Source: an uncultured virus (IMG/VR IMGVR_UViG_3300023274_000001) (Duplodnaviria; Heunggongvirae; Uroviricota; Caudoviricetes). Taken from it: 64,000 nt of DNA. Each line of letters begins with the position of its first letter. Position 1 is the stretch's first letter. Below, one piece after another: positions 19,747 to 57,060 of this stretch. Below the pieces are notes generated by a model. It was given only the letters and a program-made list of their open reading frames with translations. It made no database searches and was not told the origin of the DNA. A program made the position numbers and the translations under genes. The stretch spans positions 96,001 through 160,000 of the IMG/VR virus record IMGVR_UViG_3300023274_000001. One strand, written 5' to 3'.

Positions 19747-20337
19747 ATGACCGAGATGGACGTGCTGGAGACGGCGGGCCGCTACCGGGTGCGCCTGGTG
19801 GTTCAGCAGGACTCGCAGGATTGCAACCCCCGGACCGAGCAGGACTGCAACCTGACGAACGTGATCACCCCGAAGGGTCAGCGGTACATCGACGTCGACA
19901 AGGACGGCGGCCCGCTGGCCGAGGGCTGGGAGCGGATCGAGGACTGGTACGTGGACGCGGTCCCGGTCTTCACCCGGTGGGCCAAGATCTTCCACGGCGC
20001 CACGGTCGTCGAGCACCGGCCGCACGACGGCGCCTGGTCCATCTGGTACGTGATGCCGGAGAAGCTGGCCGAGACCACGTGGACGGCCGAGAAGGTCATC
20101 GAGTCGGAGCAGGCCGAGTACCAGCGGTGGGCCGAGGGTGAGGTGTACGGCCACATCGTCGAGAAGGACGTGACTCGCATCCCCCGGGACGCCGAGGACC
20201 GGGAGGACCCCGAGCTGGACGACGAGACCAGCGAGTGGGAGCACGTCGACTCGTGCTGGGGCTACATCGGCCGGGAGTACGCCGAGGAGGCGGCCCGTGA
20301 GGCGTTCGTCCCGTACGCCGAGGAGGCCGGGAAGTGA
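19747..20337 (+). CDS. acidic phage protein
   Basis: YQRWAEGEVYG...DSCWGYIG motif typical of phage early proteins. Confidence 0.8.
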   Translation: MTEMDVLETAGRYRVRLVVQQDSQDCNPRTEQDCNLTNVITPKGQRYIDVDKDGGPLAEGWERIEDWYVDAVPVFTRWAKIFHGATVVEHRPHDGAWSIWYVMPEKLAETTWTAEKVIESEQAEYQRWAEGEVYGHIVEKDVTRIPRDAEDREDPELDDETSEWEHVDSCWGYIGREYAEEAAREAFVPYAEEAGK

Positions 20338-20642
20338 AGCGCGAGGTGCGGGAAGTCGCTCCGATGACCGTGACCCGGATCATCCGGGGCAGGCCGCCGG
20401 GACACATCGGACCGTACTGGTTCGGCTTCGACATCAAGGTGACCGGTCCGGCGGACGGGGCGTACGTGAGCGTTCGCGCCCGCGCCCTGGCCATGGCCGA
20501 CGCGAAGGCCCTGTGTGAAGAGGTGAACGCGCCGGACCTGGTGCTCCAGTTCGAACAGTCCGGCAACTGGAGTGACCCGAGGGAGTACGAGTGCACGATC
20601 AGCTTCGGTACGGGCCTTTCCGTGGAGGAGGACCCGCTGTGA
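20334..20642 (+). CDS. hypothetical protein
   Basis: GTGA overlap. Confidence 0.7.
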   Translation: MKREVREVAPMTVTRIIRGRPPGHIGPYWFGFDIKVTGPADGAYVSVRARALAMADAKALCEEVNAPDLVLQFEQSGNWSDPREYECTISFGTGLSVEEDPL

Positions 20643-20962
20643 GCGGTGACATGTGGACCCTGCCCGACGGGACTGAGATGGTCTACCAGGATGGTGATCA
20701 CGTCACCATCGACATCGACCCCGGTTCGTCGTCGGCCCTGCAACTGCCGTTCCTGAGCGGCTACGTGCGGGGGTACGACGCCACGATCGAGGACGACGGT
20801 CCGGCCAAGGTGGCGTACACGCTGTACAGCGTGGGGAACAACCCGCTGGTCGGCGTGCGGGAGGAACGACTGAAGAAGACGGTCGGCCGGTTCGGCATCG
20901 GCCACGGCCGGGGTGCGCACGGGGACGGCAAGGCGTGTCATCTGTGCGGTGCGAACCTCTGA
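20639..20962 (+). CDS. hypothetical protein
   Basis: GGAGGAGG RBS, overlap. Confidence 0.75.
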   Translation: MSGDMWTLPDGTEMVYQDGDHVTIDIDPGSSSALQLPFLSGYVRGYDATIEDDGPAKVAYTLYSVGNNPLVGVREERLKKTVGRFGIGHGRGAHGDGKACHLCGANL

Positions 20963-20964
20963 TC

Positions 20965-21016
20965 GGGAGGCGCCCTAGGGCGACCGGCTCCGGCCGGTCA
21001 CCCGGGAGTGCCGCTC
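20965..21016 (+). repeat. intergenic bulged hairpin, family B
   Basis: GGAGGCGCCCTAGG...CCGGGAGTGCCGCTC. Confidence 0.65.
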
Positions 21017-21041
21017 ACCAGAGCGGACGGAGAGGGAGAAG

Positions 21042-21389
21042 ATGCTGACGAGTGAGGGTCTGGCCGAGGGACGCGCCTGGGTGGCCACGCCGGAGGAGTA
21101 CGAGGAGAAGGTGCAGCCGCACGTCAGGCAGCGCAACGAGCGCCGCCTGCGGGGTTTCAACTTCGAGATCGTGATCGGCGGCCTGTGCCGGGACGGGGAC
21201 TTCGCGTACCCCTACCCGGGCTACTACGGCACCACGGCGCCGGTCGTGGGGCTGCGCCGGGACCAGGCCGAGCACCTGACGGCCGAGCTGCTGAAGAAGC
21301 TGGCCCCCGGCGGCGAACTGCCGACCGACGCGGCCGAGCTGCTGGACTTCGTGTCCACCGTGCTCCGCAACGGCTCCACCCCCGCCTGA
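21042..21389 (+). CDS. hypothetical protein
   Basis: RBS. Confidence 0.8.
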   Translation: MLTSEGLAEGRAWVATPEEYEEKVQPHVRQRNERRLRGFNFEIVIGGLCRDGDFAYPYPGYYGTTAPVVGLRRDQAEHLTAELLKKLAPGGELPTDAAELLDFVSTVLRNGSTPA

Positions 21390-21390
21390 C

Positions 21391-21442
21391 GGGAGGCGCC
21401 CCAGGGTTTCCGGCTGCGACCGGAGGCCCGAGAGCGCCGCTC
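21391..21442 (+). repeat. intergenic bulged hairpin, family B variant
   Basis: GGAGGCGCCCCAGG...CCGAGAGCGCCGCTC. Confidence 0.6.
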
Positions 21443-21476
21443 GTGAGCGGTGTGGACCGGAAGGGAGGTGATCGTG

Positions 21477-21545
21477 ATGAGCGACGACGAGTGGGAGAAG
21501 GCGGGCCGTGAGGCCGATGAGATCCTGCGTCGGCTGAACGGCTGA
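21477..21545 (+). CDS. 22-aa microprotein
   Basis: GGGAGGTGA RBS; MSDDEWEKAGREADEILRRLNG. Confidence 0.5.
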   Translation: MSDDEWEKAGREADEILRRLNG

Positions 21546-21607
21546 TCGCCGACCGCGCAGCACACCACGTGAGCACAGAGAACTGCAACCGGAAGATGGA
21601 GAAGAAC

Positions 21608-21736
21608 ATGACGCAGGAGACGCCCCAGACCCCGCCGGACATGATCAACGTGCCGGTCCCGGCCGACACCCCGCCGCCGGAGGCCATCGCGGTCACCCCG
21701 GAGAACGCGCAGCAGATGGACGCCGACAAGAAGTAG
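21608..21736 (+). CDS. 42-aa Pro-rich microprotein
   Basis: GGAGAAG RBS; MTQETPQTPPD... Confidence 0.5.
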   Translation: MTQETPQTPPDMINVPVPADTPPPEAIAVTPENAQQMDADKK

Positions 21737-21797
21737 CGGGCCGACGGCGCCGCTCGGGGCGGCCGGGAGACCGGCCGCCCCCTCGGAAGGGGGAGAC

Positions 21798-22166
21798 ATG
21801 CACGAACAGGACGTATGGCGGGTGCGGTTCACCCGGGAGCACGGGGAGCTGTTCTCGCAGACCCTGGAAGGGCTGATGACCTTCCGGTACGGGTCCAGCG
21901 GGACGTGGGCGGCGCATTCGGCCATGCTCCACTGGACCCGGGCGTGCGGGGTGCCGGGCAACGCCGAGAACTATCCGATGCAGTACCTGGTCGAGGCCAT
22001 CCGCATGAAGGACGGCGAGGAGATCGTCGCCGGTACGGCGACCGTCGTACGGGATTCCCTGAACGGGAAGTTCCTCAACGAGAACCAGGTCGACATTCTC
22101 CAGTTCACCACGGAGGGGACGCTGATCCGTACCCGGGAGAGCTGGACCGTAGCCGAAAGGCACTGA
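21798..22166 (+). CDS. hypothetical protein
   Basis: RBS. Confidence 0.8.
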   Translation: MHEQDVWRVRFTREHGELFSQTLEGLMTFRYGSSGTWAAHSAMLHWTRACGVPGNAENYPMQYLVEAIRMKDGEEIVAGTATVVRDSLNGKFLNENQVDILQFTTEGTLIRTRESWTVAERH

Positions 22167-22182
22167 AGGAAGGGAGTGGGGC

Positions 22183-22407
22183 ATGGCTCTCACGCTCACG
22201 AAGGAACCGGCGCCGGAGATCACCGGCCCGATCACGATCCGCTCCGAGTGGAACCACTCGTGCACGTCGCAGTGCCCGAACCCGTGCCCGGCATCGTCCC
22301 GCCTGGGATCGCCGATCATCACGGCCCGCATCCCGCAGCAGCCGGGGCCGCAGTCGCCCCCGCCGAAGGCTCCGAAGGTCCCGCAGCAGCCGGGCCCCCG
22401 GGACTGA
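22183..22407 (+). CDS. small Pro/Cys-rich protein
   Basis: RBS; PQQPGP repeated. Confidence 0.65.
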   Translation: MALTLTKEPAPEITGPITIRSEWNHSCTSQCPNPCPASSRLGSPIITARIPQQPGPQSPPPKAPKVPQQPGPRD

Positions 22408-22433
22408 AACCGAACCAGGAGAGGGAGAAGATC

Positions 22434-22877
22434 ATGGGCGAGTGGACGATGCACGGCAAGGTGTGGTCCGACGACGGCGACGTGGGCGGCGACACGCAGA
22501 TCGGGAAGGCGGCAAGCGTCCGGTTCGTGAACCCGGACTACCCCGGCGCGCGGGTCACGGTATATGCCTACGCGCACGCTCCCGAGCGGGCGATCGAGGC
22601 GAAGGTCGGTTCGATCGAGGTCCACATGGGCTACGACGCCGACCTGAGCAACCTCGGGATCGAGTCGCAGGTCTGGTTCGAGATCGACGACGACGCCGCC
22701 GGGGACGCCGACGAGTGGGATCCGACCTGGTCGGAGATCAAGTACGAGTCGCTGGACTCGTACATCGGCCCGGGTCCCGATGAGAAGCGGGTGGCCGTGG
22801 CCGAGGCGGCGGCGCTCGCATGGGTCCGGTCGTACGACCCCAAGAAGTTCATCAAGTGGGACGGCGAACGGTTCTGA
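22434..22877 (+). CDS. acidic hypothetical protein
   Basis: RBS. Confidence 0.8.
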   Translation: MGEWTMHGKVWSDDGDVGGDTQIGKAASVRFVNPDYPGARVTVYAYAHAPERAIEAKVGSIEVHMGYDADLSNLGIESQVWFEIDDDAAGDADEWDPTWSEIKYESLDSYIGPGPDEKRVAVAEAAALAWVRSYDPKKFIKWDGERF

Positions 22878-22952
22878 GCCGGTGCGTTCGGGGCGGCGGG
22901 AGCTACGGGTTCCCGCCGCCCAGTGCACATCGGACGGAAGGAGAGGGAGAGC

Positions 22953-23924
22953 GTGAAGACGATCAAGGATGCCGAACAGGTCACTCCGCAGCAGCTCACG
23001 GGCATGACCCCGACGCAGGTGGACGAGCTGTTCGCTGCCACCTGGGACCACCGGTACGAGCTGGTGGCGGACGTGTACGCCGCATGGAACGAGGTGCACT
23101 ACGCCGTCGGCGACCGCCGGATCAGCGCGCAGACGTGGCGCCTGGGTCACCAGGAAGTGCAGGACAAGGCAGCCGGGACCGAGCGGGGGCGCAAGGCGCT
23201 CGACCGGGTGAACCGGGCGAAGGGTGCGGTCGCCGAGCTGGACGGCACCGTACTGGCCAAGCTGGAGAACGAGTTCGGCCGCCGGAGCGGCTGGTCCCGG
23301 GCCTACCTGGTGACCGATGGCCACGTGCACAGCTCGATGCACTGCTCGTCGTGCAACCGGGGCGAGTTCCCGACCCGGTTCTTCTGGATGATCGACTACT
23401 CCGGGAAGAGCCACGCCGAGATCATCGAGGCCGCCGGGGAACGGGCCTGCACGATCTGCTACCCGGATGCCCCGGTCGCCCGCCGGGACAAGGGCGAGGC
23501 GGTGGCGGTGCCGAAGTCGGTGATGTTGACCTCCGAGGAGATCGAGCGCGCCGAGGCCAGGGAGGCGGAGGCCAAGCGCCGGGCGGAGAAGAAGGCCAAG
23601 GCCGCACTGAACGCCATCACGCAGCCTGACGGTACGCCCCTGCGGGACGAGGTGGACCGGGACGGCAGGCAGAAGGGCTCGGTCGTGAAGACCGTGCGCA
23701 CGGCCCGCAGCGAGCTGAAGCGGCAGTGCTGGTACGCGTACGCCTGGGGCGACGACGACGGCGCCCATGAGCGCAACGTTCAGCACCTGGGGCGGGCCGT
23801 GGCCTGGAAGGAGAACGGGCTGGAGATCGGGACCGAGCCGACCGCCGAGCAGATCGAAGCGGTGATCAAGCCGCTGCGGGACAAGGCCCACAAGGAAGTC
23901 GACAAGGCCCGAGCGGAGGGCTGA
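22953..23924 (+). CDS. phage protein with HVH..C..C / CTIC zinc motif
   Basis: GHVHSSMHCSSC...ACTICYP. Confidence 0.85.
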   Translation: MKTIKDAEQVTPQQLTGMTPTQVDELFAATWDHRYELVADVYAAWNEVHYAVGDRRISAQTWRLGHQEVQDKAAGTERGRKALDRVNRAKGAVAELDGTVLAKLENEFGRRSGWSRAYLVTDGHVHSSMHCSSCNRGEFPTRFFWMIDYSGKSHAEIIEAAGERACTICYPDAPVARRDKGEAVAVPKSVMLTSEEIERAEAREAEAKRRAEKKAKAALNAITQPDGTPLRDEVDRDGRQKGSVVKTVRTARSELKRQCWYAYAWGDDDGAHERNVQHLGRAVAWKENGLEIGTEPTAEQIEAVIKPLRDKAHKEVDKARAEG

Positions 23925-23928
23925 GGTC

Positions 23929-24135
23929 GTGGCGGAAGACTGGGCGCGGGAGATCGAGACCGGGGATCACTCACTCCGCGTGGGGCCCGAGGGCGTCACG
24001 CTGGACGGGCCTGGTGGCGTGGAAGAACTGACCCCGAAGGACATCGAGCGCCTGTACCAGGCGCTCGTCAACTACCGCTCACACAGCGGACTGGACTGGG
24101 AGTGGGCCCGTCAGGGCTCCGACTGGTGGAAGTAG
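23929..24135 (+). CDS. hypothetical protein
   Basis: Packed ORF. Confidence 0.7.
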   Translation: MAEDWAREIETGDHSLRVGPEGVTLDGPGGVEELTPKDIERLYQALVNYRSHSGLDWEWARQGSDWWK

Positions 24136-24147
24136 GAGAGGGAGAAG

Positions 24148-24684
24148 ATGAACGAGACCACCATGCGCCTCATTCACTGGATCTGGGGCGAGCCGAAGCT
24201 GGCCGAGTTCCTGCGTGGCATCGCCGAGGGGGAGGAGATCCCGCCGCACCACGAGGTGTTCGAGTACGGGGATGACCAGCTCGCCTGCTGGATCTCCGAC
24301 CTCGTCTTCCCGGAGGACCGCAGCCGGGGGATCAAGGCGTGGATCGACCTGGGCGGCAGCGACGAGCGGGCCGACGCCCTGTATGAGACGCTGACCGAGG
24401 GCCGCAAGACGCCCGCCGGTCGCCTGAAGTGGCTCGACGAGATGGACATCGGCCTGATCCGGGACGCCCTGCTGGGGCACCGGGGAGGCTCGGACATCTA
24501 CGTCCACTCCCTGGTCAAGCCCTACCACCCGAACAACACCTACCGGGTGCACGACTCCGGGACCGTGTACGAGCGAGGGTGGACGTCGGCCTCCGGCGCC
24601 TGGGGGCTGGCCGAGAAGGACCGCCAGATCTGCCCCCGTCCCACGGTCTCGCCGTGCGGGTGCACGGTGGTCCAGCGTGGCTGA
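24148..24684 (+). CDS. hypothetical protein
   Basis: RBS. Confidence 0.8.
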   Translation: MNETTMRLIHWIWGEPKLAEFLRGIAEGEEIPPHHEVFEYGDDQLACWISDLVFPEDRSRGIKAWIDLGGSDERADALYETLTEGRKTPAGRLKWLDEMDIGLIRDALLGHRGGSDIYVHSLVKPYHPNNTYRVHDSGTVYERGWTSASGAWGLAEKDRQICPRPTVSPCGCTVVQRG

Positions 24685-25021
24685 CCTGAGCTGCACCTGC
24701 GGTCCCGGCACTTCGGTCGCCGGGACCCGGCAGGAGATCATCGAGCAGCGGCTGGCCCCGCTCTTCGGACTCACGGTTCCCGAGGTTCATGCCCTGCTGG
24801 ACCTGCTGGACCGGGCGAACGAGGCCACGCTGGACATCCCGGACGACAAGCGGGACCCGGACGGCGGGGAAACCGAGCGGCAGATGGCCCGGGAATCCGG
24901 CCGCACCGAGGGCTGGATCAAGAACTTTCTGGCCGCGTGGGAGTTCACGGGTGACACCCTGGACCGGGAACTGCACGAGAAGCATGGCCCATGGGGCGGT
25001 CTCTTCGGCAAACAGTCCTGA
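24677..25021 (+). CDS. hypothetical protein
   Basis: Overlap, GC3 bias. Confidence 0.7.
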   Translation: MADLSCTCGPGTSVAGTRQEIIEQRLAPLFGLTVPEVHALLDLLDRANEATLDIPDDKRDPDGGETERQMARESGRTEGWIKNFLAAWEFTGDTLDRELHEKHGPWGGLFGKQS

Positions 25022-25036
25022 ACAACTGGAACTTCA

Positions 25037-25055
25037 CGGCCTAGGTCAGTAGTAT
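25037..25055 (+). promoter_or_regulatory. CCTAGG box followed by TAGTAT
   Basis: CGGCCTAGGTCAGTAGTAT. Confidence 0.6.
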
Positions 25056-25097
25056 TCGAGGGCCCCGGGAGAACCGGGGCCCGGGAGGAGAGACGGC

Positions 25098-25445
25098 ATG
25101 CAGCAGATGGACGAGTACCGGCGCACCGCCAAGTTCGTGGACGTGGTGGCCGGTGAGCCGGGTCAGGTGCACACGGTGTACCGCTTCCCGAACACGGAGC
25201 ACGGTCACGGCCGGGCGGTCGAGTACCGCAACGCCTACAACGAGTCCCTGCGCGAGGCGATGGGGATCCCGAAGGCCGACCTGGAGCTGGAGAGCCCCGA
25301 CTGGGGTCAGCGCCGGGACGAGTATGACCGGGCCGAGAAGGTCGAGTCGTACCGGTACAACCAGGCGGGACTTTCGTACGTGCACCCGCCCAAGCTGATC
25401 GGGCCGGACGACCCGATGCCGACCGACTACCCGCACGAGTTCTGA
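25098..25445 (+). CDS. hypothetical protein
   Basis: RBS. Confidence 0.8.
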   Translation: MQQMDEYRRTAKFVDVVAGEPGQVHTVYRFPNTEHGHGRAVEYRNAYNESLREAMGIPKADLELESPDWGQRRDEYDRAEKVESYRYNQAGLSYVHPPKLIGPDDPMPTDYPHEF

Positions 25446-25456
25446 GGAGATCCGGG

Positions 25457-25765
25457 ATGGCCGAGCTGACCCGTGACACCACGCACTACATCGTCCATTC
25501 CACGGTCGTCGACCCGGGACCGAACTCCACCTTCGGCACCTCTCCCCCGTACTCGGGTGAGCGGGCACTGGAGCGAGCCGTGAAGGCGGCCCATGCGGAG
25601 CTGGCCGGGCGCCGCCGGGCGTTCGTGACGGCCCGGGACGGCGAGAGCCGGATCCTCGCCGTGATCCCGGTCGTGGACTACCCGGTCTTCGGGGACACGC
25701 ACGTCCCCGAGAACGCGCAGGACGCCATCACGGCCCTCTTCGAGGGGCTGGACTGGACGATCTGA
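25457..25765 (+). CDS. hypothetical protein
   Basis: GAGGAG RBS. Confidence 0.8.
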   Translation: MAELTRDTTHYIVHSTVVDPGPNSTFGTSPPYSGERALERAVKAAHAELAGRRRAFVTARDGESRILAVIPVVDYPVFGDTHVPENAQDAITALFEGLDWTI

Positions 25766-25837
25766 CACGGACGAAACCGGGCCCCTGGGAAGGGCTCCCG
25801 GTAGGCGGAACAGGACCGCCCTGACGAGTCCCGTCAG
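25762..25837 (+). ncRNA. type II hammerhead ribozyme
   Basis: GGAC-GAAA-CCGGG..CCCGG-UA-GGCGG..CCGCC-CUGACGA-GUCC; full core and three stems. Confidence 0.92.
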
Positions 25838-25852
25838 TACGGAGAGGAGAAG

Positions 25853-26173
25853 GTGAACGTGAATGCCGAGCTGCCCAGGTCGATCGAAACGGTGACTCTC
25901 GCCGACATGCCGGTGGGGATGACCGCCTACACCGTGCCCTGGGCCATGTATGCGGACCAGGACAGGAAGTTGTGGCTCGACCCCAACTTCACCTTCGAGA
26001 AGCGCCCGGGTGGCACCGTGCAGATGCGAGTCACACGCATCGACGAGGGATTCCAGGTGGGCTACGTACCCGGGGAGACGTACGAACCTGGAAGCGGTCG
26101 CGCCTCCGGCAAGGACGGCCTGCCCGTCATCGCGCTGACCGGGGCGCCCGAGCCCGACGACGCGAACGCCTGA
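25853..26173 (+). CDS. hypothetical protein
   Basis: RBS directly after ribozyme. Confidence 0.8.
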   Translation: MNVNAELPRSIETVTLADMPVGMTAYTVPWAMYADQDRKLWLDPNFTFEKRPGGTVQMRVTRIDEGFQVGYVPGETYEPGSGRASGKDGLPVIALTGAPEPDDANA

Positions 26174-26199
26174 CCAGCAAATACGGATCGGAGAAGAAC

Positions 26200-26556
26200 A
26201 TGCCGGTGAGCTACACCTTCACGAAGGCTGACGGGACCGAGCAGGACCCCGCCGCTGACCTGACCCCGGTACAGCAGGCGTTTCTGGCCCTGAGCGAGAT
26301 GGGGATCGGGATCCCCCGGCTGGACCGCAGCACGCTGGACGAGTGCGTGCGCCGCGCGGACCTGTTGCAGGCGTACGTCGGCATCGTGTGGCGCAACGGT
26401 GACGGGACGCCCCGGATCTTCACCCGGGCCGACTTCACCGAGCTGCTGCCCGGCGCCCGCACGAACTGGACGGCCCGCAGCAAGCGGGACTTCGACCAGG
26501 CCATGAAGAAGGAGATCGACGCGTACTGGAACAGCGTCGACAGCCGCAAGAAGTAG
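26200..26556 (+). CDS. hypothetical protein, paralog of 35556-35891
   Basis: GIPRLD...DECVRRADL. Confidence 0.8.
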   Translation: MPVSYTFTKADGTEQDPAADLTPVQQAFLALSEMGIGIPRLDRSTLDECVRRADLLQAYVGIVWRNGDGTPRIFTRADFTELLPGARTNWTARSKRDFDQAMKKEIDAYWNSVDSRKK

Positions 26557-26565
26557 GAGGACGGC

Positions 26566-27012
26566 ATGCCCCGGTGGCGGTACGACCTGGACCAGGTGAT
26601 CCGGGTGATGGACCAGGTGATCGACAAGGAACCCGAGCGGATCGACCGGCGGGCCGAGGGGCGCCTGGGCTGCGTGTACGCCGAGCACGGGGCGGCGGCC
26701 TGCCTGGTGGGCGAGATGCTGGTGGCCCTCGGGATCGAGGTTCGCACCCTGCGGGGGCTCGACCGGGAGGGTAAGTACATCCACGAGTCGGAGCACCCGT
26801 TCTGGCGCCGGTTCCAGCCGGAGGCCCGGGATCTCCTGTCGTACCTGCAACGGCAGAACGACGCCTCGTGGACCTGGGCGAAGGCCCGGGAGCGGGCGTT
26901 CACCGTCAATCGCAGGTGGTTCGAAGAGGGACCCGAGTCCCGCTACTACCACCGGGCGTTCCCGGGCGCCTGGGTGACCGCCGAGAACTATCGCAAGATC
27001 ACGAAGTACTGA
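26566..27012 (+). CDS. hypothetical protein
   Basis: CVY...CLVG motif. Confidence 0.8.
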   Translation: MPRWRYDLDQVIRVMDQVIDKEPERIDRRAEGRLGCVYAEHGAAACLVGEMLVALGIEVRTLRGLDREGKYIHESEHPFWRRFQPEARDLLSYLQRQNDASWTWAKARERAFTVNRRWFEEGPESRYYHRAFPGAWVTAENYRKITKY

Positions 27013-27026
27013 GGAGAGGGAAGAAC

Positions 27027-27476
27027 GTGGACAGCTTCACGAACGTGGCCGCCGACGCGGTGACGGCGCACGAGAACGGGACATACCGGAAGGGCGCCAA
27101 CGCCGCCGCCGATCACGTGGTCGAGGCGGTCAGGAAGTACGGCAAGTGGGCGGTGCTCGCCGCCTCCGAGCTGATCAAGCTCGACCCGGACGACGCCTTC
27201 GAGGACATCCCGGCCGACAAGGTCATGGAGTTCATGGAGGAGAACTACCTGCACTCCGGGGCCACCGTCGCCCACGCGCTGGAGACCTACGCCAAGGACG
27301 CCGGGGACCACACCGAGCTGGGCCGCCTGTACGACGCGCTCGACAAGGCGGGCGGCGTGGACCGCTTCGACTGGGGCTCTTATGCCGACGACGGCATGAC
27401 CCCGACGATCGGCCTGCACTTCGTCGTGATGCCGGTCCCGGCGGGCGAGTCCGGCACCTTCATCTTCGGGAGCTGA
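27027..27476 (+). CDS. ArdA-like acidic protein
   Basis: EFMEENY...RFDWGSYADD resembles the ArdA C-terminal YFDxExYARD motif. Confidence 0.55.
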   Translation: MDSFTNVAADAVTAHENGTYRKGANAAADHVVEAVRKYGKWAVLAASELIKLDPDDAFEDIPADKVMEFMEENYLHSGATVAHALETYAKDAGDHTELGRLYDALDKAGGVDRFDWGSYADDGMTPTIGLHFVVMPVPAGESGTFIFGS

Positions 27477-27479
27477 GCC

Positions 27480-27791
27480 ATGTCCTGGGAATCCAACCGG
27501 GAAGTGATCCGGACCTGCCTCGCGGAAGCGATGAAGGGCAAGGCCGGAGCGAACGGTCCCGGAACCCTGCGGGAGGTGCGCGGCAAGAACGACTCGGACA
27601 CCTGGTTCACGATCATCGGGACCTGGCGCCTGTACGCCCGCTTCCTCGCCGCCGTGGCCGCCGAGAGCGCGCAGACGGCGCACATCCTGGACTTCAACAT
27701 GGTCCCCGGTGACCCCGGGGACGGGAGCGGCGAGATGGAGTTCTTCTTCGTCGGCTGCCGCCTCGCGGACTTCGAGAAGAGGGGGAGCTGA
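27480..27791 (+). CDS. hypothetical protein
   Basis: Packed ORF. Confidence 0.75.
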   Translation: MSWESNREVIRTCLAEAMKGKAGANGPGTLREVRGKNDSDTWFTIIGTWRLYARFLAAVAAESAQTAHILDFNMVPGDPGDGSGEMEFFFVGCRLADFEKRGS

Positions 27792-27795
27792 CCAC

Positions 27796-28212
27796 ATGGT
27801 CAACGGCGGTGACATGCTCGACTGGTGGACGGTTCCGGGTGCCCGCTGGGGTGTGCGGAACGTGGACTTCAAGGTCGAGCTGAAGCGGGACGGGGTGGCC
27901 AGCCCGGTCCTGCTGGAGGGGTACAGCGAGGAAGACCTGGCCGCGTTCGACGGCGGTGACTGGCAGTTCGTCATCGTCCGCGTGGTGCCGGTGGACCGGG
28001 ACCTCACGGACCTGGTGAGCGCCGAGCGGTTCATCCGGGGTGTGGACTGGGGCGACCTGCCGCAGGGCCGCATCGACCGGGAGGATGTGACCGACGCGCA
28101 GGCGAAGGAGCTGGCCATCGAGTCGGTCCGGGCGCTGCGCAGCTTCGGGGTCACCGTCGAGACGGAACGGGACAGCGAGTTCGCGATCCCGCGCGTTACG
28201 GCTCCGTTCTGA
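27796..28212 (+). CDS. hypothetical protein
   Basis: RBS. Confidence 0.75.
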   Translation: MVNGGDMLDWWTVPGARWGVRNVDFKVELKRDGVASPVLLEGYSEEDLAAFDGGDWQFVIVRVVPVDRDLTDLVSAERFIRGVDWGDLPQGRIDREDVTDAQAKELAIESVRALRSFGVTVETERDSEFAIPRVTAPF

Positions 28213-28286
28213 ACGAGCCCTGTGGGGCCCTCGCCGAGGGCCCCGTGGAGTCCGGTTCAGCCGGTGAAAACGGAAGGGAGAAGAGG

Positions 28287-28496
28287 ATGCTCACATTGGT
28301 GCTGTGCTTTCCGGCGCAGGGGAGGATGCCCCGGGGCGAGCTGCGGATCTCCGCCAGTCACGTCCCGCAACTCGGCTCGACCATCAACACGCCGAGCCCC
28401 CGATTCGGTACCTGGAAGGTGAATCACATCGGCCAGGACACGGACGGGACCACCCTGAGCGACACGGTGTTCCTCTACCTGGAGGAGACGGACTGA
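28287..28496 (+). CDS. hypothetical protein
   Basis: RBS. Confidence 0.75.
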   Translation: MLTLVLCFPAQGRMPRGELRISASHVPQLGSTINTPSPRFGTWKVNHIGQDTDGTTLSDTVFLYLEETD

Positions 28497-28840
28497 TGGG
28501 ACACCGGATCAAGGTCGAACGGTACGGCCTGGACCACGCACTGGAGAGCAGCGAGGAGTTCAACGCCCCCTCATGGGAGGGCATCTGGCAGGCCGTCGAG
28601 GGCGAGATGGAGCGCACCGGAAAGACGCCGAGCGGCATGGAGGGCTGGGAAGAGGGCGGCTGCGTCCTGGACTCGGACCACGACTGCGAGGCCGACCCCG
28701 CCAAGTGCGAGGAGAACCTGAAGGACGCGATCCGGGACTGGATCAAGTCGTCCTGGGAGAACGACGAACTGAAGACCGGCAGCTTCCACTTCGGCGGCGT
28801 GGACTGGTCGTCGGTCACCTTCGGATGGGACGGAGAGTAG
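28496..28840 (+). CDS. acidic hypothetical protein
   Basis: TGATG coupling. Confidence 0.8.
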   Translation: MGHRIKVERYGLDHALESSEEFNAPSWEGIWQAVEGEMERTGKTPSGMEGWEEGGCVLDSDHDCEADPAKCEENLKDAIRDWIKSSWENDELKTGSFHFGGVDWSSVTFGWDGE

Positions 28841-28843
28841 GAC

Positions 28844-29146
28844 ATGGCGGAGCGGATGCGCGTGAAGGAGGCCCCTCGCCGGATCGAGGGGCTGCCGGTG
28901 GTCAAGTCGGCCTTCCTGGGCTGGCTTTCCGACTTCCGGCAGGAGGGCGGATACGTGGCGGTCTGCATCACGTACGGCGTGACCGACGTGGACAAGGGTG
29001 AGCAGTACCAGTTCCACATCATGTGGTCGAACGGCCTGGACAAGCCGTGGCGCCGCATCGAGAGCCTGCTGGAGCTGAACCGATACGCGGCGCTGGCCGC
29101 GTTCGACAGGCACGAGAAGCTGGCCGTCTGGCCGGAAGGGAACTGA
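28844..29146 (+). CDS. hypothetical protein, tandem paralog A
   Basis: Ends F..EKLAVWP. Confidence 0.8.
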   Translation: MAERMRVKEAPRRIEGLPVVKSAFLGWLSDFRQEGGYVAVCITYGVTDVDKGEQYQFHIMWSNGLDKPWRRIESLLELNRYAALAAFDRHEKLAVWPEGN

Positions 29147-29148
29147 AC

Positions 29149-29463
29149 ATGGCACGCAGGAACCCGCTGCTGGCCAAGGCCCTGCCGTCCACGGTGGACG
29201 ACCACCACGTGATCAAGGTGAGCCACCTCGGCTGGCAGGACAACGAAGAGCTGTCAATGATGCCCGGCTACCTGGCGGCCGTCATCACGTACAACGCCTA
29301 CAGCGGTGACGACCCCGGCGCCTACGGCATCCACCTGATGCGGACTGCCACGCCCGACGGCCGGTGGCTGCGCATCGACAGCCGCCGCAACCTGATGTGG
29401 AGCGAGGCCGAGAGCGCCTTCGCTTCCTACGACAAGCTGGCCGTCCGGCCGGGGAGGATCTGA
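29149..29463 (+). CDS. hypothetical protein, tandem paralog B
   Basis: Ends F..DKLAVRP. Confidence 0.8.
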   Translation: MARRNPLLAKALPSTVDDHHVIKVSHLGWQDNEELSMMPGYLAAVITYNAYSGDDPGAYGIHLMRTATPDGRWLRIDSRRNLMWSEAESAFASYDKLAVRPGRI

Positions 29464-29465
29464 AC

Positions 29466-29795
29466 ATGGCAGGCATCCGCATCCTGGAGCGCAACGGCGA
29501 CATCGTCTCTCACTCGTCCGTGTGGGCCGGACCGGAGGAGGTTCCGGTGGTCTTCGTGATCGTGAAGGACGGGGTCACTGCGCTCGCCCACCCGGACTAC
29601 GTCGGCGGCACCATCTACGACATCGAGCAGGGCGACCTGACGATCGAGCAGGCGTGGGATGCGCTGCTGATCAAGACGCCGAAGCTGGTCTACCCGCAGA
29701 GGTGCACCGTGCGCAGGCTGGATGGGACCGGCGGAGGCGCCGAGATCCTGATCGGCAAGCGGGTCGTGCACCGGATCGCGGGGGTGAACGAGTGA
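29466..29795 (+). CDS. hypothetical protein
   Basis: RBS. Confidence 0.75.
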   Translation: MAGIRILERNGDIVSHSSVWAGPEEVPVVFVIVKDGVTALAHPDYVGGTIYDIEQGDLTIEQAWDALLIKTPKLVYPQRCTVRRLDGTGGGAEILIGKRVVHRIAGVNE

Positions 29796-30103
29796 GCGCC
29801 TTCGAGAGGCCCAAGGAGATCGGGAAGCGGCCCGAGCCCGGCAAGCTCGACCCGGTGTGGACCTTCCTGCGTACCTCGTACGGGCCGGAGTACAACTTCG
29901 ACCTGTACCGGGCGCACGGTCTCGACAGCTTGTACTTCGTCGACCCGCGCCAGGACCCGCAGCCGTGGGAGCTGAAGGACGGGGCGCTGGACCTGGGTCT
30001 CGACAAGGAGCGCATGACCGAGCTGCGGGACCTGTTCACGTACCTGCTCGACAACTGGGGCAGGCCGTGGGCCCGCGAGTCCCACCCGGAAGAGGAGAAG
30101 TAA
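29792..30103 (+). CDS. hypothetical protein
   Basis: GTGA overlap. Confidence 0.75.
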   Translation: MSAFERPKEIGKRPEPGKLDPVWTFLRTSYGPEYNFDLYRAHGLDSLYFVDPRQDPQPWELKDGALDLGLDKERMTELRDLFTYLLDNWGRPWARESHPEEEK

Positions 30104-30439
30104 GTGGCCAAGCTGATCGAGATCCCCAACGTCACCTGCGGGAACGGCCTGCACATGCAGGCGCCCGCCCCGGAGCCGGTGTTCCACTTCACGCAGAACG
30201 ACGGCTTCCACGGGATCATCTACCTGGACGCCGTGAAGGCGTGGGCGCGGGCCATGCGGGAGGACGGGGTGCCCCTGCGGGAGATGGCCCACGACCTGTA
30301 CGTGCTGCTGCCGGGCAGCCGGGAGCTGATCCGCTGCACGCTGGTCGTGGCGGACGGCGAGAACGGCCCGGAGATGGAAGTCGAGGCTCTGCGGCCGACG
30401 GTCCTGGAGTCCAACACCCTGTTCACCTGCCCCATCTGA
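30104..30439 (+). CDS. hypothetical protein
   Basis: Packed ORF. Confidence 0.75.
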   Translation: MAKLIEIPNVTCGNGLHMQAPAPEPVFHFTQNDGFHGIIYLDAVKAWARAMREDGVPLREMAHDLYVLLPGSRELIRCTLVVADGENGPEMEVEALRPTVLESNTLFTCPI

Positions 30440-30513
30440 GCCGGTCGGCTTCTCGGGGACACGGGCTTCGGTCCGTGCCCCCGGGTGGACTATCGGAAAG
30501 GACAAGAAACGCG

Positions 30514-30852
30514 ATGAAGTACAGGTTCTGGATCTACCGGGACGTGGCTCCCCCGTACGCACTGGCGGGCAACCCGAACGCCCCGAAGCCCAGCGATCCA
30601 CTTCCCGTCGGCCTGGCTCACCCGGGCCGGGAGGTGGAGGGGATCACGCCTGCCGTCGACCAGATCATGGAGGTCTTCGAGCAGCACGGTGTGGACGACG
30701 AGAGCGAGAAGGCCATTATCCGGGGGAAGGCCACGGAGGCACTGCTGCGGGGTTCCTACCGCACGGCTCTGCCCACGCCCGGCCGCTGGCTGCTGGCCGA
30801 GAAGGTCGTTCCGGGCCGCACGCACCCGGTTACCGGAGAGGTGAGCGAATGA
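30514..30852 (+). CDS. hypothetical protein
   Basis: RBS. Confidence 0.75.
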   Translation: MKYRFWIYRDVAPPYALAGNPNAPKPSDPLPVGLAHPGREVEGITPAVDQIMEVFEQHGVDDESEKAIIRGKATEALLRGSYRTALPTPGRWLLAEKVVPGRTHPVTGEVSE

Positions 30853-31334
30853 GGTACGGACTGACCGTGAACAACGGCCGCGTGATGGCGGCCGACCGGG
30901 CGGAGACCAAGGCAATGATCATCGGCGTGCTGCTGGCCGCCGGGTTCAGTGAGCCGGTTTCCGTACAGGTCAAGGCCGACGAGGTGCTGGACCGGGCCGA
31001 CAAGCTGCCTTCGGACGAGGTGCAAGGCGTGAAGCTGGCCAGCCTCGGCGAGCTGCTGGTCTGGCGGGAGCGCGGCCGGGAGGTTTCGGGCCGCTTCTAC
31101 TACGTGAAGGCCGGGGACATCGGGGCCGCCTTCCGGACCGATGCCGAGGCGCCGCTGGTGTCGCACCTGATGGGCCTCCTGATGGGCAGCGAAGGGATCG
31201 GTCTGGAGCGGGCGGCGGCGCTCTCCGAGGGCGTGGCGCACTGCCTCTCCGAGGGTGGCAGCTACCCGAACCGGGTCATCACCGAGCTGAAGAACGGCTC
31301 GGACCTGCGGGCCTGGTGGGAGGACGAAGCGTGA
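30849..31334 (+). CDS. hypothetical protein with possible internal duplication
   Basis: ATGA overlap. Confidence 0.75.
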   Translation: MRYGLTVNNGRVMAADRAETKAMIIGVLLAAGFSEPVSVQVKADEVLDRADKLPSDEVQGVKLASLGELLVWRERGREVSGRFYYVKAGDIGAAFRTDAEAPLVSHLMGLLMGSEGIGLERAAALSEGVAHCLSEGGSYPNRVITELKNGSDLRAWWEDEA

Positions 31335-31564
31335 GCTGGATGATGGCTGTCGGGTCGGGCCATGGCCCCGTGGGGCCCGTCCGGGAGGCGCAGGAGCTGA
31401 GGAACTGCGTGCTGGCCGCCCTACTGGTGGCCGGTGTCGACGAGGAAGACGCCGAGTGGGAGAGTTCGCACGCCCCGGAAGCGGCAGCCGGGGGTGAGGC
31501 CGTCTGGACGTACGCCCTCCCTGACGGAAGGAAGATCGTGGTCTGGAAGGAGAGCGGGACGTGA
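31331..31564 (+). CDS. hypothetical protein
   Basis: GTGA overlap. Confidence 0.7.
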   Translation: MSWMMAVGSGHGPVGPVREAQELRNCVLAALLVAGVDEEDAEWESSHAPEAAAGGEAVWTYALPDGRKIVVWKESGT

Positions 31565-31920
31565 CCCACAACTGGAGCTGGACCATCCGGGTCAAGCAGG
31601 GCGATCCGGGATACCGGGTGCACAGCATCGAGGCCCTGATGGCGGCCGTGGCTGGCGCCCTGATGGCGGAGGGTACCGACTCCCGGATGGCCGACACGTT
31701 CGCGCGGTCGGTCCGGGAGCGGGCGCTGGAACAGTGCGAGCAGCGTCGCATGAACCACTCGACGCCGCCGCTGGAGTACCAGCAGATCCTCACCGTCACG
31801 AAGGCGCTTCACGTCACCTCGGACGACCTCCCGGAGGACTCGGACCGGTACTGCGAGGGCCGGACCGAGTCCGGGAGCCGCTGCCCGAGACACCTCAACC
31901 ACCTCGGGGAGTGCCGATGA
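31561..31920 (+). CDS. hypothetical protein
   Basis: GTGA overlap; C..C..H..C tail. Confidence 0.75.
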   Translation: MTHNWSWTIRVKQGDPGYRVHSIEALMAAVAGALMAEGTDSRMADTFARSVRERALEQCEQRRMNHSTPPLEYQQILTVTKALHVTSDDLPEDSDRYCEGRTESGSRCPRHLNHLGECR

Positions 31921-32144
31921 GGTGGGGCGACGACGCCGACGGCGAGCCGGGCCGGGACACGAGCTAGATCAACGTCAGGCCGGGCGTGGCCATCGAGATC
32001 GAGTACAGCTCGACCGAGTACGAGATGGCCCGGCCGGAGGATGAGGTCGACGGGAAGCTGACCGGCCGGATCCGGATCACCCGGGAGAAGATCTTCGACG
32101 CCGACTTCCTGATCGACTCCCTGACGGGGGAAGAGAAGGACTGA
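31917..32144 (+). pseudogene. small ORF interrupted by in-frame TAG
   Basis: ATGA overlap; TAG at 31965-31967, frame continues to TGA 32144. Confidence 0.55.
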
Positions 32145-38245: not shown

Positions 38246-38728
38246 ATGCTGACGGCCGAACTCGTCCACGGGACAGGGCACTTCAGCTACGCTGATGCCG
38301 AGCACCTGGCGGATCTGTGGAACCGGGCCTACCCGGCGATGCGACAGATCTCCACCGGCTACATCGAAGGCATGCGCAAGTACATCGAGCAGGAGGGCTG
38401 GGTCATCGACCCCGCCCACCGGCACGCCGAAGTGCTTCAGGCGTACGCCACACCGGAGAAGAAGGCCCACCGCAAGCTGAAGCTGGCGGAAGACCTCCGC
38501 CGGGACCTCGGGCAGCTCGACCGTGGGACGCACAAGCCGTGCACCCGCAGCCCGGGATGCTTCTCGGTGACGGCCGCCTACATGGCGGTCAGGAACCTGA
38601 TCAGCCTCAGCTCCCTCAACAGCGAGGGACTGGCTTCGGTCTACCGGCTGGCCGCCGAGCTGGCCGAGGCCGAGGAGCGGGTCAACGAAGCCCGCAAGGA
38701 ATGGCACCGGAAGAACGCGACGGCCTGA
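38246..38728 (+). CDS. hypothetical protein
   Basis: Packed ORF. Confidence 0.75.
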   Translation: MLTAELVHGTGHFSYADAEHLADLWNRAYPAMRQISTGYIEGMRKYIEQEGWVIDPAHRHAEVLQAYATPEKKAHRKLKLAEDLRRDLGQLDRGTHKPCTRSPGCFSVTAAYMAVRNLISLSSLNSEGLASVYRLAAELAEAEERVNEARKEWHRKNATA

Positions 38729-38754
38729 CGGCCGGACGGAAACGGAGAAAAGAC

Positions 38755-39057
38755 ATGCGCAGGATCCTGTTCAAGGGCGTCGAGGGCGTCGAGCGTACGG
38801 CGTGGGTGCAGCACGGCTTCACGGTTCAGCGGGCACTGGAGGCCCGGGGGTACAGCGTCACCTCCGAGGACGGCTACAACCCGTGGGCCGAGAACGACAC
38901 GCTCGTCTCGGCGGCCGGTACGACCGAGAAGGGCGGCTCGGCGTACCACCTCTTCATGACGGCCGACAAGGAGACGCTGGACCTCGTCTGGTCCGCGATC
39001 GAGATGTCCCACCCTGACGCCTCCTGCAAGTGGGAGGCGCTGGACCGCCCCGCCTGA
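38755..39057 (+). CDS. hypothetical protein
   Basis: RBS. Confidence 0.75.
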   Translation: MRRILFKGVEGVERTAWVQHGFTVQRALEARGYSVTSEDGYNPWAENDTLVSAAGTTEKGGSAYHLFMTADKETLDLVWSAIEMSHPDASCKWEALDRPA

Positions 39058-39108
39058 ACCACCCGGCTCAACCTGAACCGAACGAATCGAAGAGGAGAAG
39101 AACCCATC

Positions 39109-39330
39109 ATGCAGCTTCCCAGCCGCGCCGAAGTCCGCAGCCAGATCAGCTCGAAGTTCCCGGGCCTGCCCGAGAGCAGCCTGGGCTGGGTGTCGGGCAT
39201 GCTCTCCGACAAGATCGAGGCCGACGTCGAGACCGCCGACGCCGAGTTCCACCGCGAGATGGAGCGTGCCATCCGAGCCGGTGAGGAGCCCGCGATCGGC
39301 GTGGCGCTCGCCGCGCTCAAAGCGGTCTGA
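39109..39330 (+). CDS. hypothetical protein
   Basis: RBS. Confidence 0.75.
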   Translation: MQLPSRAEVRSQISSKFPGLPESSLGWVSGMLSDKIEADVETADAEFHREMERAIRAGEEPAIGVALAALKAV

Positions 39331-47666: not shown

Positions 47667-47755
47667 CCTGACCCAAGGCCGAAACCCCGCAGCCAGTGGG
47701 GTCGCAGCATGGAGTGCTGCCTGACGATGGCCGTCAGCGAGAGGAAGGGGAAGCC

Positions 47756-55296: not shown

Positions 55297-55561
55297 GACA
55301 CTGCCCGTACGAACCGAAGGGGAGGTCGAGATGGCCGCGCAAGCCAGCTCCAGCGGGTGCAGCAGCACCACGACGGGGATTCGTGGATCCCTGACCGGCC
55401 GCGTCACCCGCGAACCGGTGCGCAACTACTGGCCGGATCACGACATGACCCCGAGGACCGACTTCATCAGCGAGCGGAACCGTACCGCTCTGATGTGGCG
55501 ACTCTGACGTCTCTTTCCCGGTAGGATTTCTCCAGGAAAATGGAGAAGGAAGGACCGGGAA

Positions 55562-56236: not shown

Positions 56237-57001
56237 TCAGCTCACGTCCATGTTCGGGTACCGCTTCTTCACGGCCGCGCGCACCTTGCGCTTGTCCTCG
56301 TCGGACCCGAACTGCTCGACCCGGGACAGGGCGCTGCGGGCCCGAGCCGGGGTGTCGATGGGGTACTTGCGGCCCGGCAGGGCGAAGGCGGAGTCCGGCA
56401 GCTTGTTGCGCTTGTCGGCGTTCAGTGGCGCTTCCTGGAGGTCGCTCTCCCCCATGTAGCTGTACTCGTCCTCGTCGGGGTCGCCGTACTCGTAGTCGTC
56501 GACCGGCGGTTCGGCCATCGGGTCGCCGTACTGGTCCTCGATCGCCTGCTGGAGGTCGTCGAGAGTGTCGCCGTCCACGAACTGGCTGAGCACGGCGAGC
56601 GCCATCCGCGCGTCGTCCTCGCAGGGGAAGGAGGACATGTTCTCGCGCACGAACTCGGCCGCCGCCTCCTTCTGCTCCTCCTCGTCGCCCTCGCCCTTCT
56701 TCTGGAGCCACGGCGGCAGGGCTTCGAGCAGTCCGGACTTCTCCAGGGTGGCGCGCGGCTTGATCTGCGGACTGGTCGCCTCCTGCGCCGTCTCCCAGGG
56801 GCGCTGCGACTCGTCCATGCCGCGCTTGCGGCTGGCCGTCCCGCCGGGGTAGTCGGCCTCCTGCTGGGTCCGGAAGCCGATGCCGTTCCGGGTGAACCGC
56901 TTGTCCTTCACCGCCGTGCGCATGCCCACCGGCATGTCCGAGCTTGCCGCCTCGCGCAGGCCGGTCGTCTTCAGGCTGTGACTGTCGTATCCGTTGGCCA
57001 C
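56237..57001 (-). CDS. acidic protein with C-terminal DUF6582-like domain
   Basis: RNKLPDSAFALPGRKYPIDT..RARSALSR. Confidence 0.75.
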   Translation of the reverse strand: MANGYDSHSLKTTGLREAASSDMPVGMRTAVKDKRFTRNGIGFRTQQEADYPGGTASRKRGMDESQRPWETAQEATSPQIKPRATLEKSGLLEALPPWLQKKGEGDEEEQKEAAAEFVRENMSSFPCEDDARMALAVLSQFVDGDTLDDLQQAIEDQYGDPMAEPPVDDYEYGDPDEDEYSYMGESDLQEAPLNADKRNKLPDSAFALPGRKYPIDTPARARSALSRVEQFGSDEDKRKVRAAVKKRYPNMDVS

Positions 57002-57060
57002 TGCTCCACCTCATTTCCGGGCATGCCCGTATCCAGAAGAGCGTATCTGCGGGAACGACG

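Follow-up and report, generated by a model that had tools for sequence, protein, structure and literature searches.

The question raised by this locus is whether a short intergenic stretch of an uncultured tailed phage encodes a genuine type II hammerhead ribozyme and, if so, what its self-cleavage would do to the phage mRNA. The window, that is, the whole stretch of DNA analysed, comprised 64,000 nucleotides (positions 96,001 to 160,000 of IMG/VR record IMGVR_UViG_3300023274_000001), and coordinates are those of the window unless a relative is named. A first-pass annotation had claimed an intact type II hammerhead at 25762-25837 (+), designated HH1 here. This was borne out by four observations: the catalytic core was complete, the element outlived its flanks in related phages, all helices covaried, and a second, independent copy (HH2) was found in the same genome. 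The sequence at 25762-25837 is therefore a true type II hammerhead that had escaped annotation, and the phage carries two such elements. The preferred reading, to which a probability of roughly 0.8 was assigned, is that this genuine hammerhead cuts a long polycistronic mRNA, which would likely insulate or stabilise the downstream cistrons.

Sequence, fold and setting of HH1

Each of the parts that had been described for HH1 (stem II, GAAA, stem III, stem I and CUGACGA) was present base for base (Table 1). The order of the elements on the strand gave both HH1 and HH2 a type II topology, in which loops close stems I and III and stem II is left open. Both copies possessed the G10.1-C11.1 pair (G25828:C25772 in HH1 and G47729:C47680 in HH2) and the CUGACGA core strand, and the core strand was present in all 23 distinct homologs. 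Stem III of HH1 is closed by A25776:U25802, and this A15.1:U16.1 pair was likewise kept in 23 of 23. HH1 fills the 87-nt gap between two co-directional small genes, with the stop codon of the upstream ORF (TGA, 25763-25765) falling within its distal stem II strand and its 3' end lying 3 nt ahead of the next RBS. The predicted cut after A25803, which had been placed about 50 nt ahead of the next start codon, was correct by sequence, the next in-frame start (GTG 25853 or 25859) being located 50-56 nt beyond it.

Unconstrained folding of 25755-25845 returned the hammerhead three-way junction as the MFE structure (-37.9 kcal/mol, 0.53 of the ensemble). Relative to shuffled sequences, however, the z-score of HH1 was only -1.32, with 16 of 200 shuffles equally stable in this 66% GC genome, and stability alone is therefore not the evidence. 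Covariance models R1 and R2 scored HH1 at 106.1 and 95.5 bits, respectively, the window sequence having been part of the training set. It had also been suggested that a loop-loop pairing could form between CCTG and CAGG. Both motifs were indeed present and complementary (CCUG at 25784-25787 and CAGG at 25811-25814), but their pairing was unsupported in homologs, as the partner was missing from those with other stem III loops (Xp15, L011 and L172), and kissing of loops I and III was rejected. In the hammerhead fold, stem I packs on stem II and stem III points away, which makes a contact between loops I and III sterically implausible.

A search of the whole window against Rfam gave no matches at gathering thresholds. 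The Rfam hammerhead models had been proposed as a check on the annotation; neither HH1 nor HH2 reached their thresholds. For HH1, the best clan match in Rfam was a mis-registered Hammerhead_3 (type III) alignment of 15.8-17.6 bits, and the Hammerhead_II match ranked below a 15.8-bit clan competitor. With RF02276, whose gathering score is 37, HH2 reached 26.8 bits and the HH1 homolog in Satis reached 23.4 bits. Given these sub-threshold scores, current models under-call this hammerhead branch. An Rfam match to b55 (Mycobacterium B11) was dismissed as chance, reaching 19.6 bits where 70 were needed.

None of the five flanking proteins had a Pfam or PHROG family at E <= 0.01. Homologs of the gene at 26200-26556, the usual partner of the ribozyme, directly follow the hammerhead in phages Frankenweenie, Satis and JustBecause, all three of which are missing the 106-aa ORF at 25853-26173. 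The leader that follows HH1 (UACGGA and then a GGAGAAG-type RBS; 25838-25852) recurs before the partner gene (26182-26199). As the leader is present at both ends, the 106-aa ORF looks like a cassette that was inserted into the leader, with duplication of the latter. A contig from sequencing run X4 joins 25846 to 26190 and represents the form without this ORF.

Table 1. Coordinates of the two hammerheads, their parts and the adjoining genes in the window
Feature	Position	Strand	Details	Basis
Upstream ORF, 102 aa	25457..25765	+	Homolog of Frankenweenie gp323; no Pfam/PHROG family	
HH1, type II, whole element	25762..25837	+		Sequence, MFE fold, covariance models, descriptor scan
HH1 stem II, 5' strand	25762..25772	+	CUGAC 25762-66, internal loop AC, GGAC 25769-72	
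HH1 core G12 A13 A14 A15.1	25773..25776	+	GAAA	Invariant in 23/23 distinct homologs
HH1 stem III hairpin	25777..25801	+	CCGGG 25777-81 / CCCGG 25797-801, plus distal helix	
HH1 U16.1 and A17	25802..25803	+	Predicted cleavage between 25803 and 25804	
HH1 stem I hairpin	25804..25820	+	GGCGG 25804-08 / CCGCC 25816-20, 7-nt loop AACAGGA	
HH1 core C3 U4 G5 A6 C7 G8 A9	25821..25827	+	CUGACGA	Sequence
HH1 stem II, 3' strand	25828..25837	+	GUCC 25828-31, bulged C, GUCAG 25833-37	
Purine-rich RBS region and start	25841..25855	+	GTG start 25853; alternative in-frame GTG 25859	
Inserted ORF, 106 aa	25853..26173	+	Between HH1 and the usual partner gene	
Partner ORF, 118 aa	26200..26556	+	Homologs gp322 Frankenweenie 92%, gp299 Satis 75%, gp294 JustBecause 66%	
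ORF upstream of HH2, 83 aa	47415..47666	+	Homolog of Frankenweenie gp270; stop TGA 47664-66	
HH2, type II, whole element	47668..47737	+		Sequence, covariance model, descriptor scan
HH2 5' part		+	CUGAC 47668-72, loop CCAA, GGCC 47677-80, GAAA 47681-84, then stem III	
HH2 U47702 C47703		+	Predicted cut after 47703	
HH2 3' part		+	Stem I 47704-20, CUGACGA 47721-27, extra U 47728, GGCC 47729-32, GUCAG 47733-37	
Purine-rich RBS after HH2	47740-52	+		
ORF downstream of HH2, 68 aa	47756..47962	+	From GTG 47756; homolog of Frankenweenie gp269	

A second hammerhead, homologs and covariation

HH2 was found 22 kb from HH1, on the same strand and likewise between genes, by model R1, which had been built without it (33.1 bits, E 8.5e-7). 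Its layout is that of HH1 (stop codon, ribozyme, purine-rich RBS and GTG), with the upstream stop codon ending 2 nt before the element. Some active hammerheads of viroids and satellites are known to have, like HH2, one additional nucleotide between A9 and G10.1. Both strands of the 188,697-bp genome were scanned with a strict type II descriptor, for which the two core strands, any base but G at position 17 and minimum lengths of 4, 3 and 5 pairs for stems I, II and III, respectively, were obligatory. The scan returned two sites, HH1 and HH2, both on the plus strand and intergenic, while the same descriptor gave no site in any of 40 first-order Markov random genomes; HH1 is therefore not a chance occurrence. 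A loose pattern gave 3 matches in the window against 0.64 expected, and those at 55464-55517 and 56968-57017 (both minus) did not fold as hammerheads and were judged to be chance. The same verdict was reached for a model match at 55432-55508 (+; 17.4 bits, E 0.03), which has a broken core and lies inside an ORF. This stretch contains a stem I-like hairpin and CUGAUG, and the enclosing ORF ends in CUCUGAC.

The phage is a Streptomyces jumbo phage, its closest records being phages of this kind of 184-200 kb, with identities of 87.8% for Frankenweenie and about 83% for JustBecause and Kela. The alignment to Satis, Kradal, Quantum and EhyElimayoE was confined to query bases 362-453, the element itself of about 90 nt (90.6%), and did not extend into the flanks. 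Model R2 detected three hammerheads each in Frankenweenie, JustBecause and Satis and two in a 199-kb viral contig, and in the annotated relatives all were on the gene strand; no RNA feature is listed at the hammerhead sites in the records of these relatives. The Frankenweenie copies occupy gaps of 87-98 nt between gp323/322, gp292/291 and gp270/269, and in the surrounding 25 kb of that genome all 67 annotated features lie on one strand, mostly abutting or overlapping, nearly all of them hypothetical proteins and none an RNA. L040 (Frankenweenie 165384-165460) and JustBecause 150537-150613 represent a third type of hammerhead, whose stem I loop is longer; in Frankenweenie it separates the weakly similar small genes gp292 and gp291 (23% identity).

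Across the 23 distinct sequences, an alignment of related sequences fitted to the model and so leaning towards the structure, 93.7% of cells were paired and 13 of the 20 modelled pairs had changed on both sides (an earlier covariation set held 17 sequences). None of 500 shuffles matched the observed covariation, and slid registers were only 32-49% paired. Stems I and III were each paired in 100% of cells, with double changes in 4 of 5 and 3 of 6 pairs, respectively (7 of 11 together). Position 17 is A in HH1, U in JustBecause and Kela, and C in HH2 and Satis, and was never G in homologs. Among 208 distinct hammerheads it was C in 199, U in 6 and A in 3, although the scan itself required a non-G and these counts are consequently no independent test. 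The G10.1-C11.1 pair is replaced by U.U in L002, L003, L010, L014 and L015 (JustBecause, Kela and related contigs), a change of both bases that occurs with two distinct sets of flanking sequence; these homologs may be slow, inactive or differently tuned.

The positions of the copies relative to genes differ between phages. Satis is without the gene upstream of HH1, and at the window position corresponding to the Frankenweenie gp292/gp291 site (38716-39109) both the third hammerhead and gp292 were absent, the third copy being missing because another ORF (38755-39057) occupies the site. The extra ORF, the missing Satis gene and the absence of the third copy together indicate that the ribozymes move along with gene cassettes, and recombination joints fall at the conserved patch. 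These mosaic junctions could also be taken to mean that the approximately 90 nt acts as DNA, as a recombination hot spot or module boundary in mosaic phages with an incidental RNA fold, given the missing upstream gene in Satis, the additional gene just downstream in the window and a third copy whose presence follows that of its gene cassette. Such an explanation was considered highly improbable. Compensatory changes that keep RNA helices would be unexpected for a DNA site, as would the confinement to the sense strand directly before an RBS, and the hammerhead core was kept in paralogs of otherwise different sequence. Mosaic breakpoints at a conserved patch are, moreover, the expected side effect of homology.

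Similar elements were found beyond the jumbo phages. A narrower pattern retrieved 27 metagenome contigs and 1 genome contig, and a search for related loci with the partner protein P0002 returned only four close relatives, all already known. A broader scan of IMG/VR matched at least 120 stretches, and R2 confirmed 96 hammerheads in 80 loci among the matches listed, the maximum being 6 in one locus. Among the unrelated viral contigs listed (L046, L070, L097 and others), arrays of 5-6 type II copies within a few kb were common, and most array hammerheads among the IMG/VR matches listed begin 0-4 nt after UAA, UAG or UGA. An unrelated 38.5-kb viral contig carries four hammerheads within 3 kb according to model R2 (L016, 519-3502; all type II and on one strand), and the last of these is directly succeeded by a hairpin similar to a hammerhead stem I and then CCUGG, which may be the remnant of a fifth copy. 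In Satis (L028), two hammerheads of the HH2 type lie on one strand at a distance of about 310 nt (146465-146538 and 146776-146850), a pair that, judged from its sequence, would excise a single small-gene RNA.

Self-cleavage, its possible use and the alternatives

As a member of the hammerhead family, HH1 would be expected to cleave itself and to leave a 5'-OH end. Within a long co-directional transcript, the HH1 RNA would fold into the three-way junction and self-cleave after A25803. This would leave the upstream RNA with the stem III hairpin and a 2',3'-cyclic phosphate at its 3' terminus, and the downstream RNA would open with the stem I hairpin, bearing a 5'-OH, 50 nt ahead of the following start codon. 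HH2 would do likewise 22 kb downstream. The likely use would be to cut a very long polycistronic mRNA into pieces with defined, structured ends, so that the expression and decay of the downstream cistrons would be uncoupled from those upstream, much like the action of the RiboJ insulator. The structured 5'-OH end may also be shielded from 5'-end-dependent RNases. We infer in vivo catalysis, the end chemistry, the timing of transcription and the stabilising or insulating role for HH1 and HH2 alike.

Several other uses were rejected. Neither RtcB (PF01139) nor an RNA ligase (PF09414) was found in the genome, which argues against ligation or circularisation by a phage enzyme, and a role in tRNA processing was dismissed because no tRNA was found in the window. 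Unmasking of the RBS was also considered. The predicted 3' products of HH1 and HH2 both consist of two hairpins followed by an unpaired RBS, and the predicted accessibility of the RBS rose upon cleavage from 0.20 to 0.56 for HH1 but went from 0.57 to 0.56 for HH2. As exposure rises in HH1 only, unmasking is no general explanation.

Scans of 20000-32000 gave no sigma-70 promoter-like sites, the consensus being unsuited to this host, and two intrinsic terminator-like sites on the minus strand; both results were lower than the mean of shuffled sequences. One 202-nt contig from a soil metatranscriptome library runs through the site uncut (25724-25925), which could reflect DNA carry-over or uncleaved RNA, and contigs cannot show ends. 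The material from runs X1-X4 likewise consists of contigs with small shares, which show neither transcription nor RNA ends.

This uncut contig in an RNA library, together with the U.U change at 10.1/11.1 in some homologs, the sub-threshold Rfam scores and the lack of a recognisable pseudoknot between loop I and the tail, would fit a conserved structure of hammerhead ancestry that performs no useful cleavage and serves as punctuation only, whether by blocking decay, by offering RNases a site of entry or by decoupling translation. Such a loss of function is very unlikely, however, as every catalytic position was intact in HH1 and HH2 and the core was kept in all 23 distinct homologs. A retained core, compensating helices and the avoidance of G at position 17 point to selection on catalysis and not on shape alone. 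Furthermore, similar prophage arrays cleave in vitro and in vivo (PMC3088659, PMC8782182).

A different possibility, less likely than not, is that the hammerhead is real and acts as a regulated switch, in which the 3' strand of stem II (C-GUCAG) would pair either with the upstream CUGAC, giving the active form, or with core C3-G8, giving the inactive form. Such an alternative partner was predicted for HH1 at core positions 25821-25826. Since the stop codon of the preceding gene lies within the upstream CUGAC strand in HH1 and 2 nt ahead of it in HH2, a terminating ribosome would hold the ribozyme off, and after cleavage the core-tail hairpin would release the 5' product and block re-ligation. 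Folding predictions were compatible with this. The 3' products of HH1 and HH2 were both modelled as stem I plus a 6-bp core-tail hairpin, and the hammerhead was nearly isoenergetic with an alternative, core-burying fold (-37.9 vs. -36.2 kcal/mol for HH1 and -33.2 vs. -33.5 kcal/mol for HH2), the MFE fold of HH2 in a longer context being the inactive conformer. At least four of the C3-G8 positions could pair with the tail in 19 of 23 distinct sequences (all 18 jumbo-phage copies and one from the 38.5-kb contig). Core-tail pairing was frequent by chance, however, occurring in 38% of tail-shuffled controls, and in the broad viral set its excess was small (42 of 85, against 36% in controls). The position of the stop codon beside stem II also follows from tight gene packing.

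The distal CUGAC/GUCAG helix of stem II was near-invariant across the three paralog types while stems I and III covaried freely. More informative was N7, a core position that is otherwise free: UCAG occurred within 16 nt after A9 in 38 of the 208 distinct hammerheads, and the base preceding it was matched to N7 as C-G in 25, U-A in 7 and U-G in 3, with mismatches in the remainder (C.A in 1 and U.C in 2). In 21 of these 38 any upstream CUGA-type strand was lacking, so that the core-tail hairpin cannot there be a by-product of the distal stem. On the other hand, many of the 25 C-G cases are related copies and not independent events, the base before UCAG doubles as a stem II base in compact forms, and L175 keeps its distal helix by covariation (CUGGC/GCCGG, N7 = G) at the cost of breaking the alternative hairpin. 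A selected role for the core-tail hairpin, in switching or in product release, was regarded as rather unlikely. A similar or slightly lower probability was given to its general form, in which a phage type II subclass that includes HH1 and HH2 would have a built-in two-state switch between an N'-UCAG tail and core C3-N7, with N7 covarying with N', and in which jumbo phages would have added an upstream CUGAC at the stop codon that competes for the tail and turns the ribozyme on. If it were true, cleavage would report ribosome occupancy at the end of the upstream cistron, and the tail would then lock the core and release the product. Were the core-sequestering hairpin real, regulation would be superimposed on a ribozyme that is generally regarded as constitutive.

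Comparison with known hammerheads

Cleavage of a polycistronic mRNA by a genuine hammerhead, the reading preferred above, has parallels among described systems. Type II hammerheads are common in bacteria, and in prophage polycistrons several of them often flank single genes or short blocks (PMC3088659, Perreault et al. 2011). Three such prophage arrays were cleaved during in vitro transcription (PMC3088659), and in D. vulgaris three type II hammerheads cleave in vivo, at least one of them near phage-derived genes (PMC8782182). Hammerheads between small phage genes have been catalogued since 2011, and a 2017 review, which describes them as flanking small, non-conserved ORFs, still called their role an open question (PMC6155905). 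Our literature search found no report of natural hammerheads in Streptomyces phages or actinobacteriophages, although the supplements of PMC3088659 might include relatives. The copies identified here occur in Streptomyces phages that are in culture and amenable to genetics (Frankenweenie, JustBecause, Kela, Satis and others), which therefore offer a practical system for testing the role of a hammerhead in a phage.

HH1 and HH2 share with the type II family RF02276 the same catalytic core and the same circular permutation. Like its prophage members, they are intergenic, on the sense strand and multi-copy, and flank small genes of unknown function, with a stop codon before and an RBS after. Unlike RF02276, their stem II is long and interrupted (4 bp, internal loop, 5 bp) where 2-4 bp are usual, stem III of HH1 is long, and HH2 has its extra U between A9 and G10.1. 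The majority of type II hammerheads form a pseudoknot of at least 4 pairs between loop I and the 3' tail immediately beyond stem II (PMC3088659). No complement of loop I, as in the pseudoknot typical of the published type II consensus, was seen by eye in the tails of HH1 and HH2, and the activity of HH1 at cellular Mg2+ is therefore not assured. Among the 8 distinct HH2-type sequences, a pairing of UGG in loop I with CCA/CCG in the internal loop of stem II is conceivable by eye for 5.

An element of Xanthomonas phage Xp15 (NC_007024, 396-457, minus) has a near-identical stem I and loop, the same core and C17, and it also lies between two small genes. It differs from HH1 in having a different, compensated stem III, neither distal stem II nor GUCAG tail, and a proteobacterial host. 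A 'Xanthomonas phage' RNA, which may or may not be the Xp15 locus, is listed among inactive hammerhead-like examples in PMC3088659.

In RiboJ, the sTRSV hammerhead and a hairpin are placed before an RBS, and transcript as well as protein was increased (PMC6206723). HH1 and HH2 likewise lie directly upstream of an RBS, and their predicted product starts with a defined hairpin leader. RiboJ, however, is an engineered type III element placed after a promoter, whereas the phage element is natural, of type II and located between cistrons; the likeness lies in a possible way of working and not in ancestry. The HHphage hammerhead of haloviruses HF1 and HF2 also precedes a start codon by a few nucleotides within a polycistronic phage RNA, and a 5' end has been mapped close to where it cleaves (PMC3088659). 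HHphage, a variant from archaeal viruses, has an unusual core and depends on salt, in contrast to HH1, which has a canonical core. HH1 and HH2 are thus an unannotated example, with a variant stem II, of the multi-hammerhead phage arrangement that was reported from prophages in 2011.
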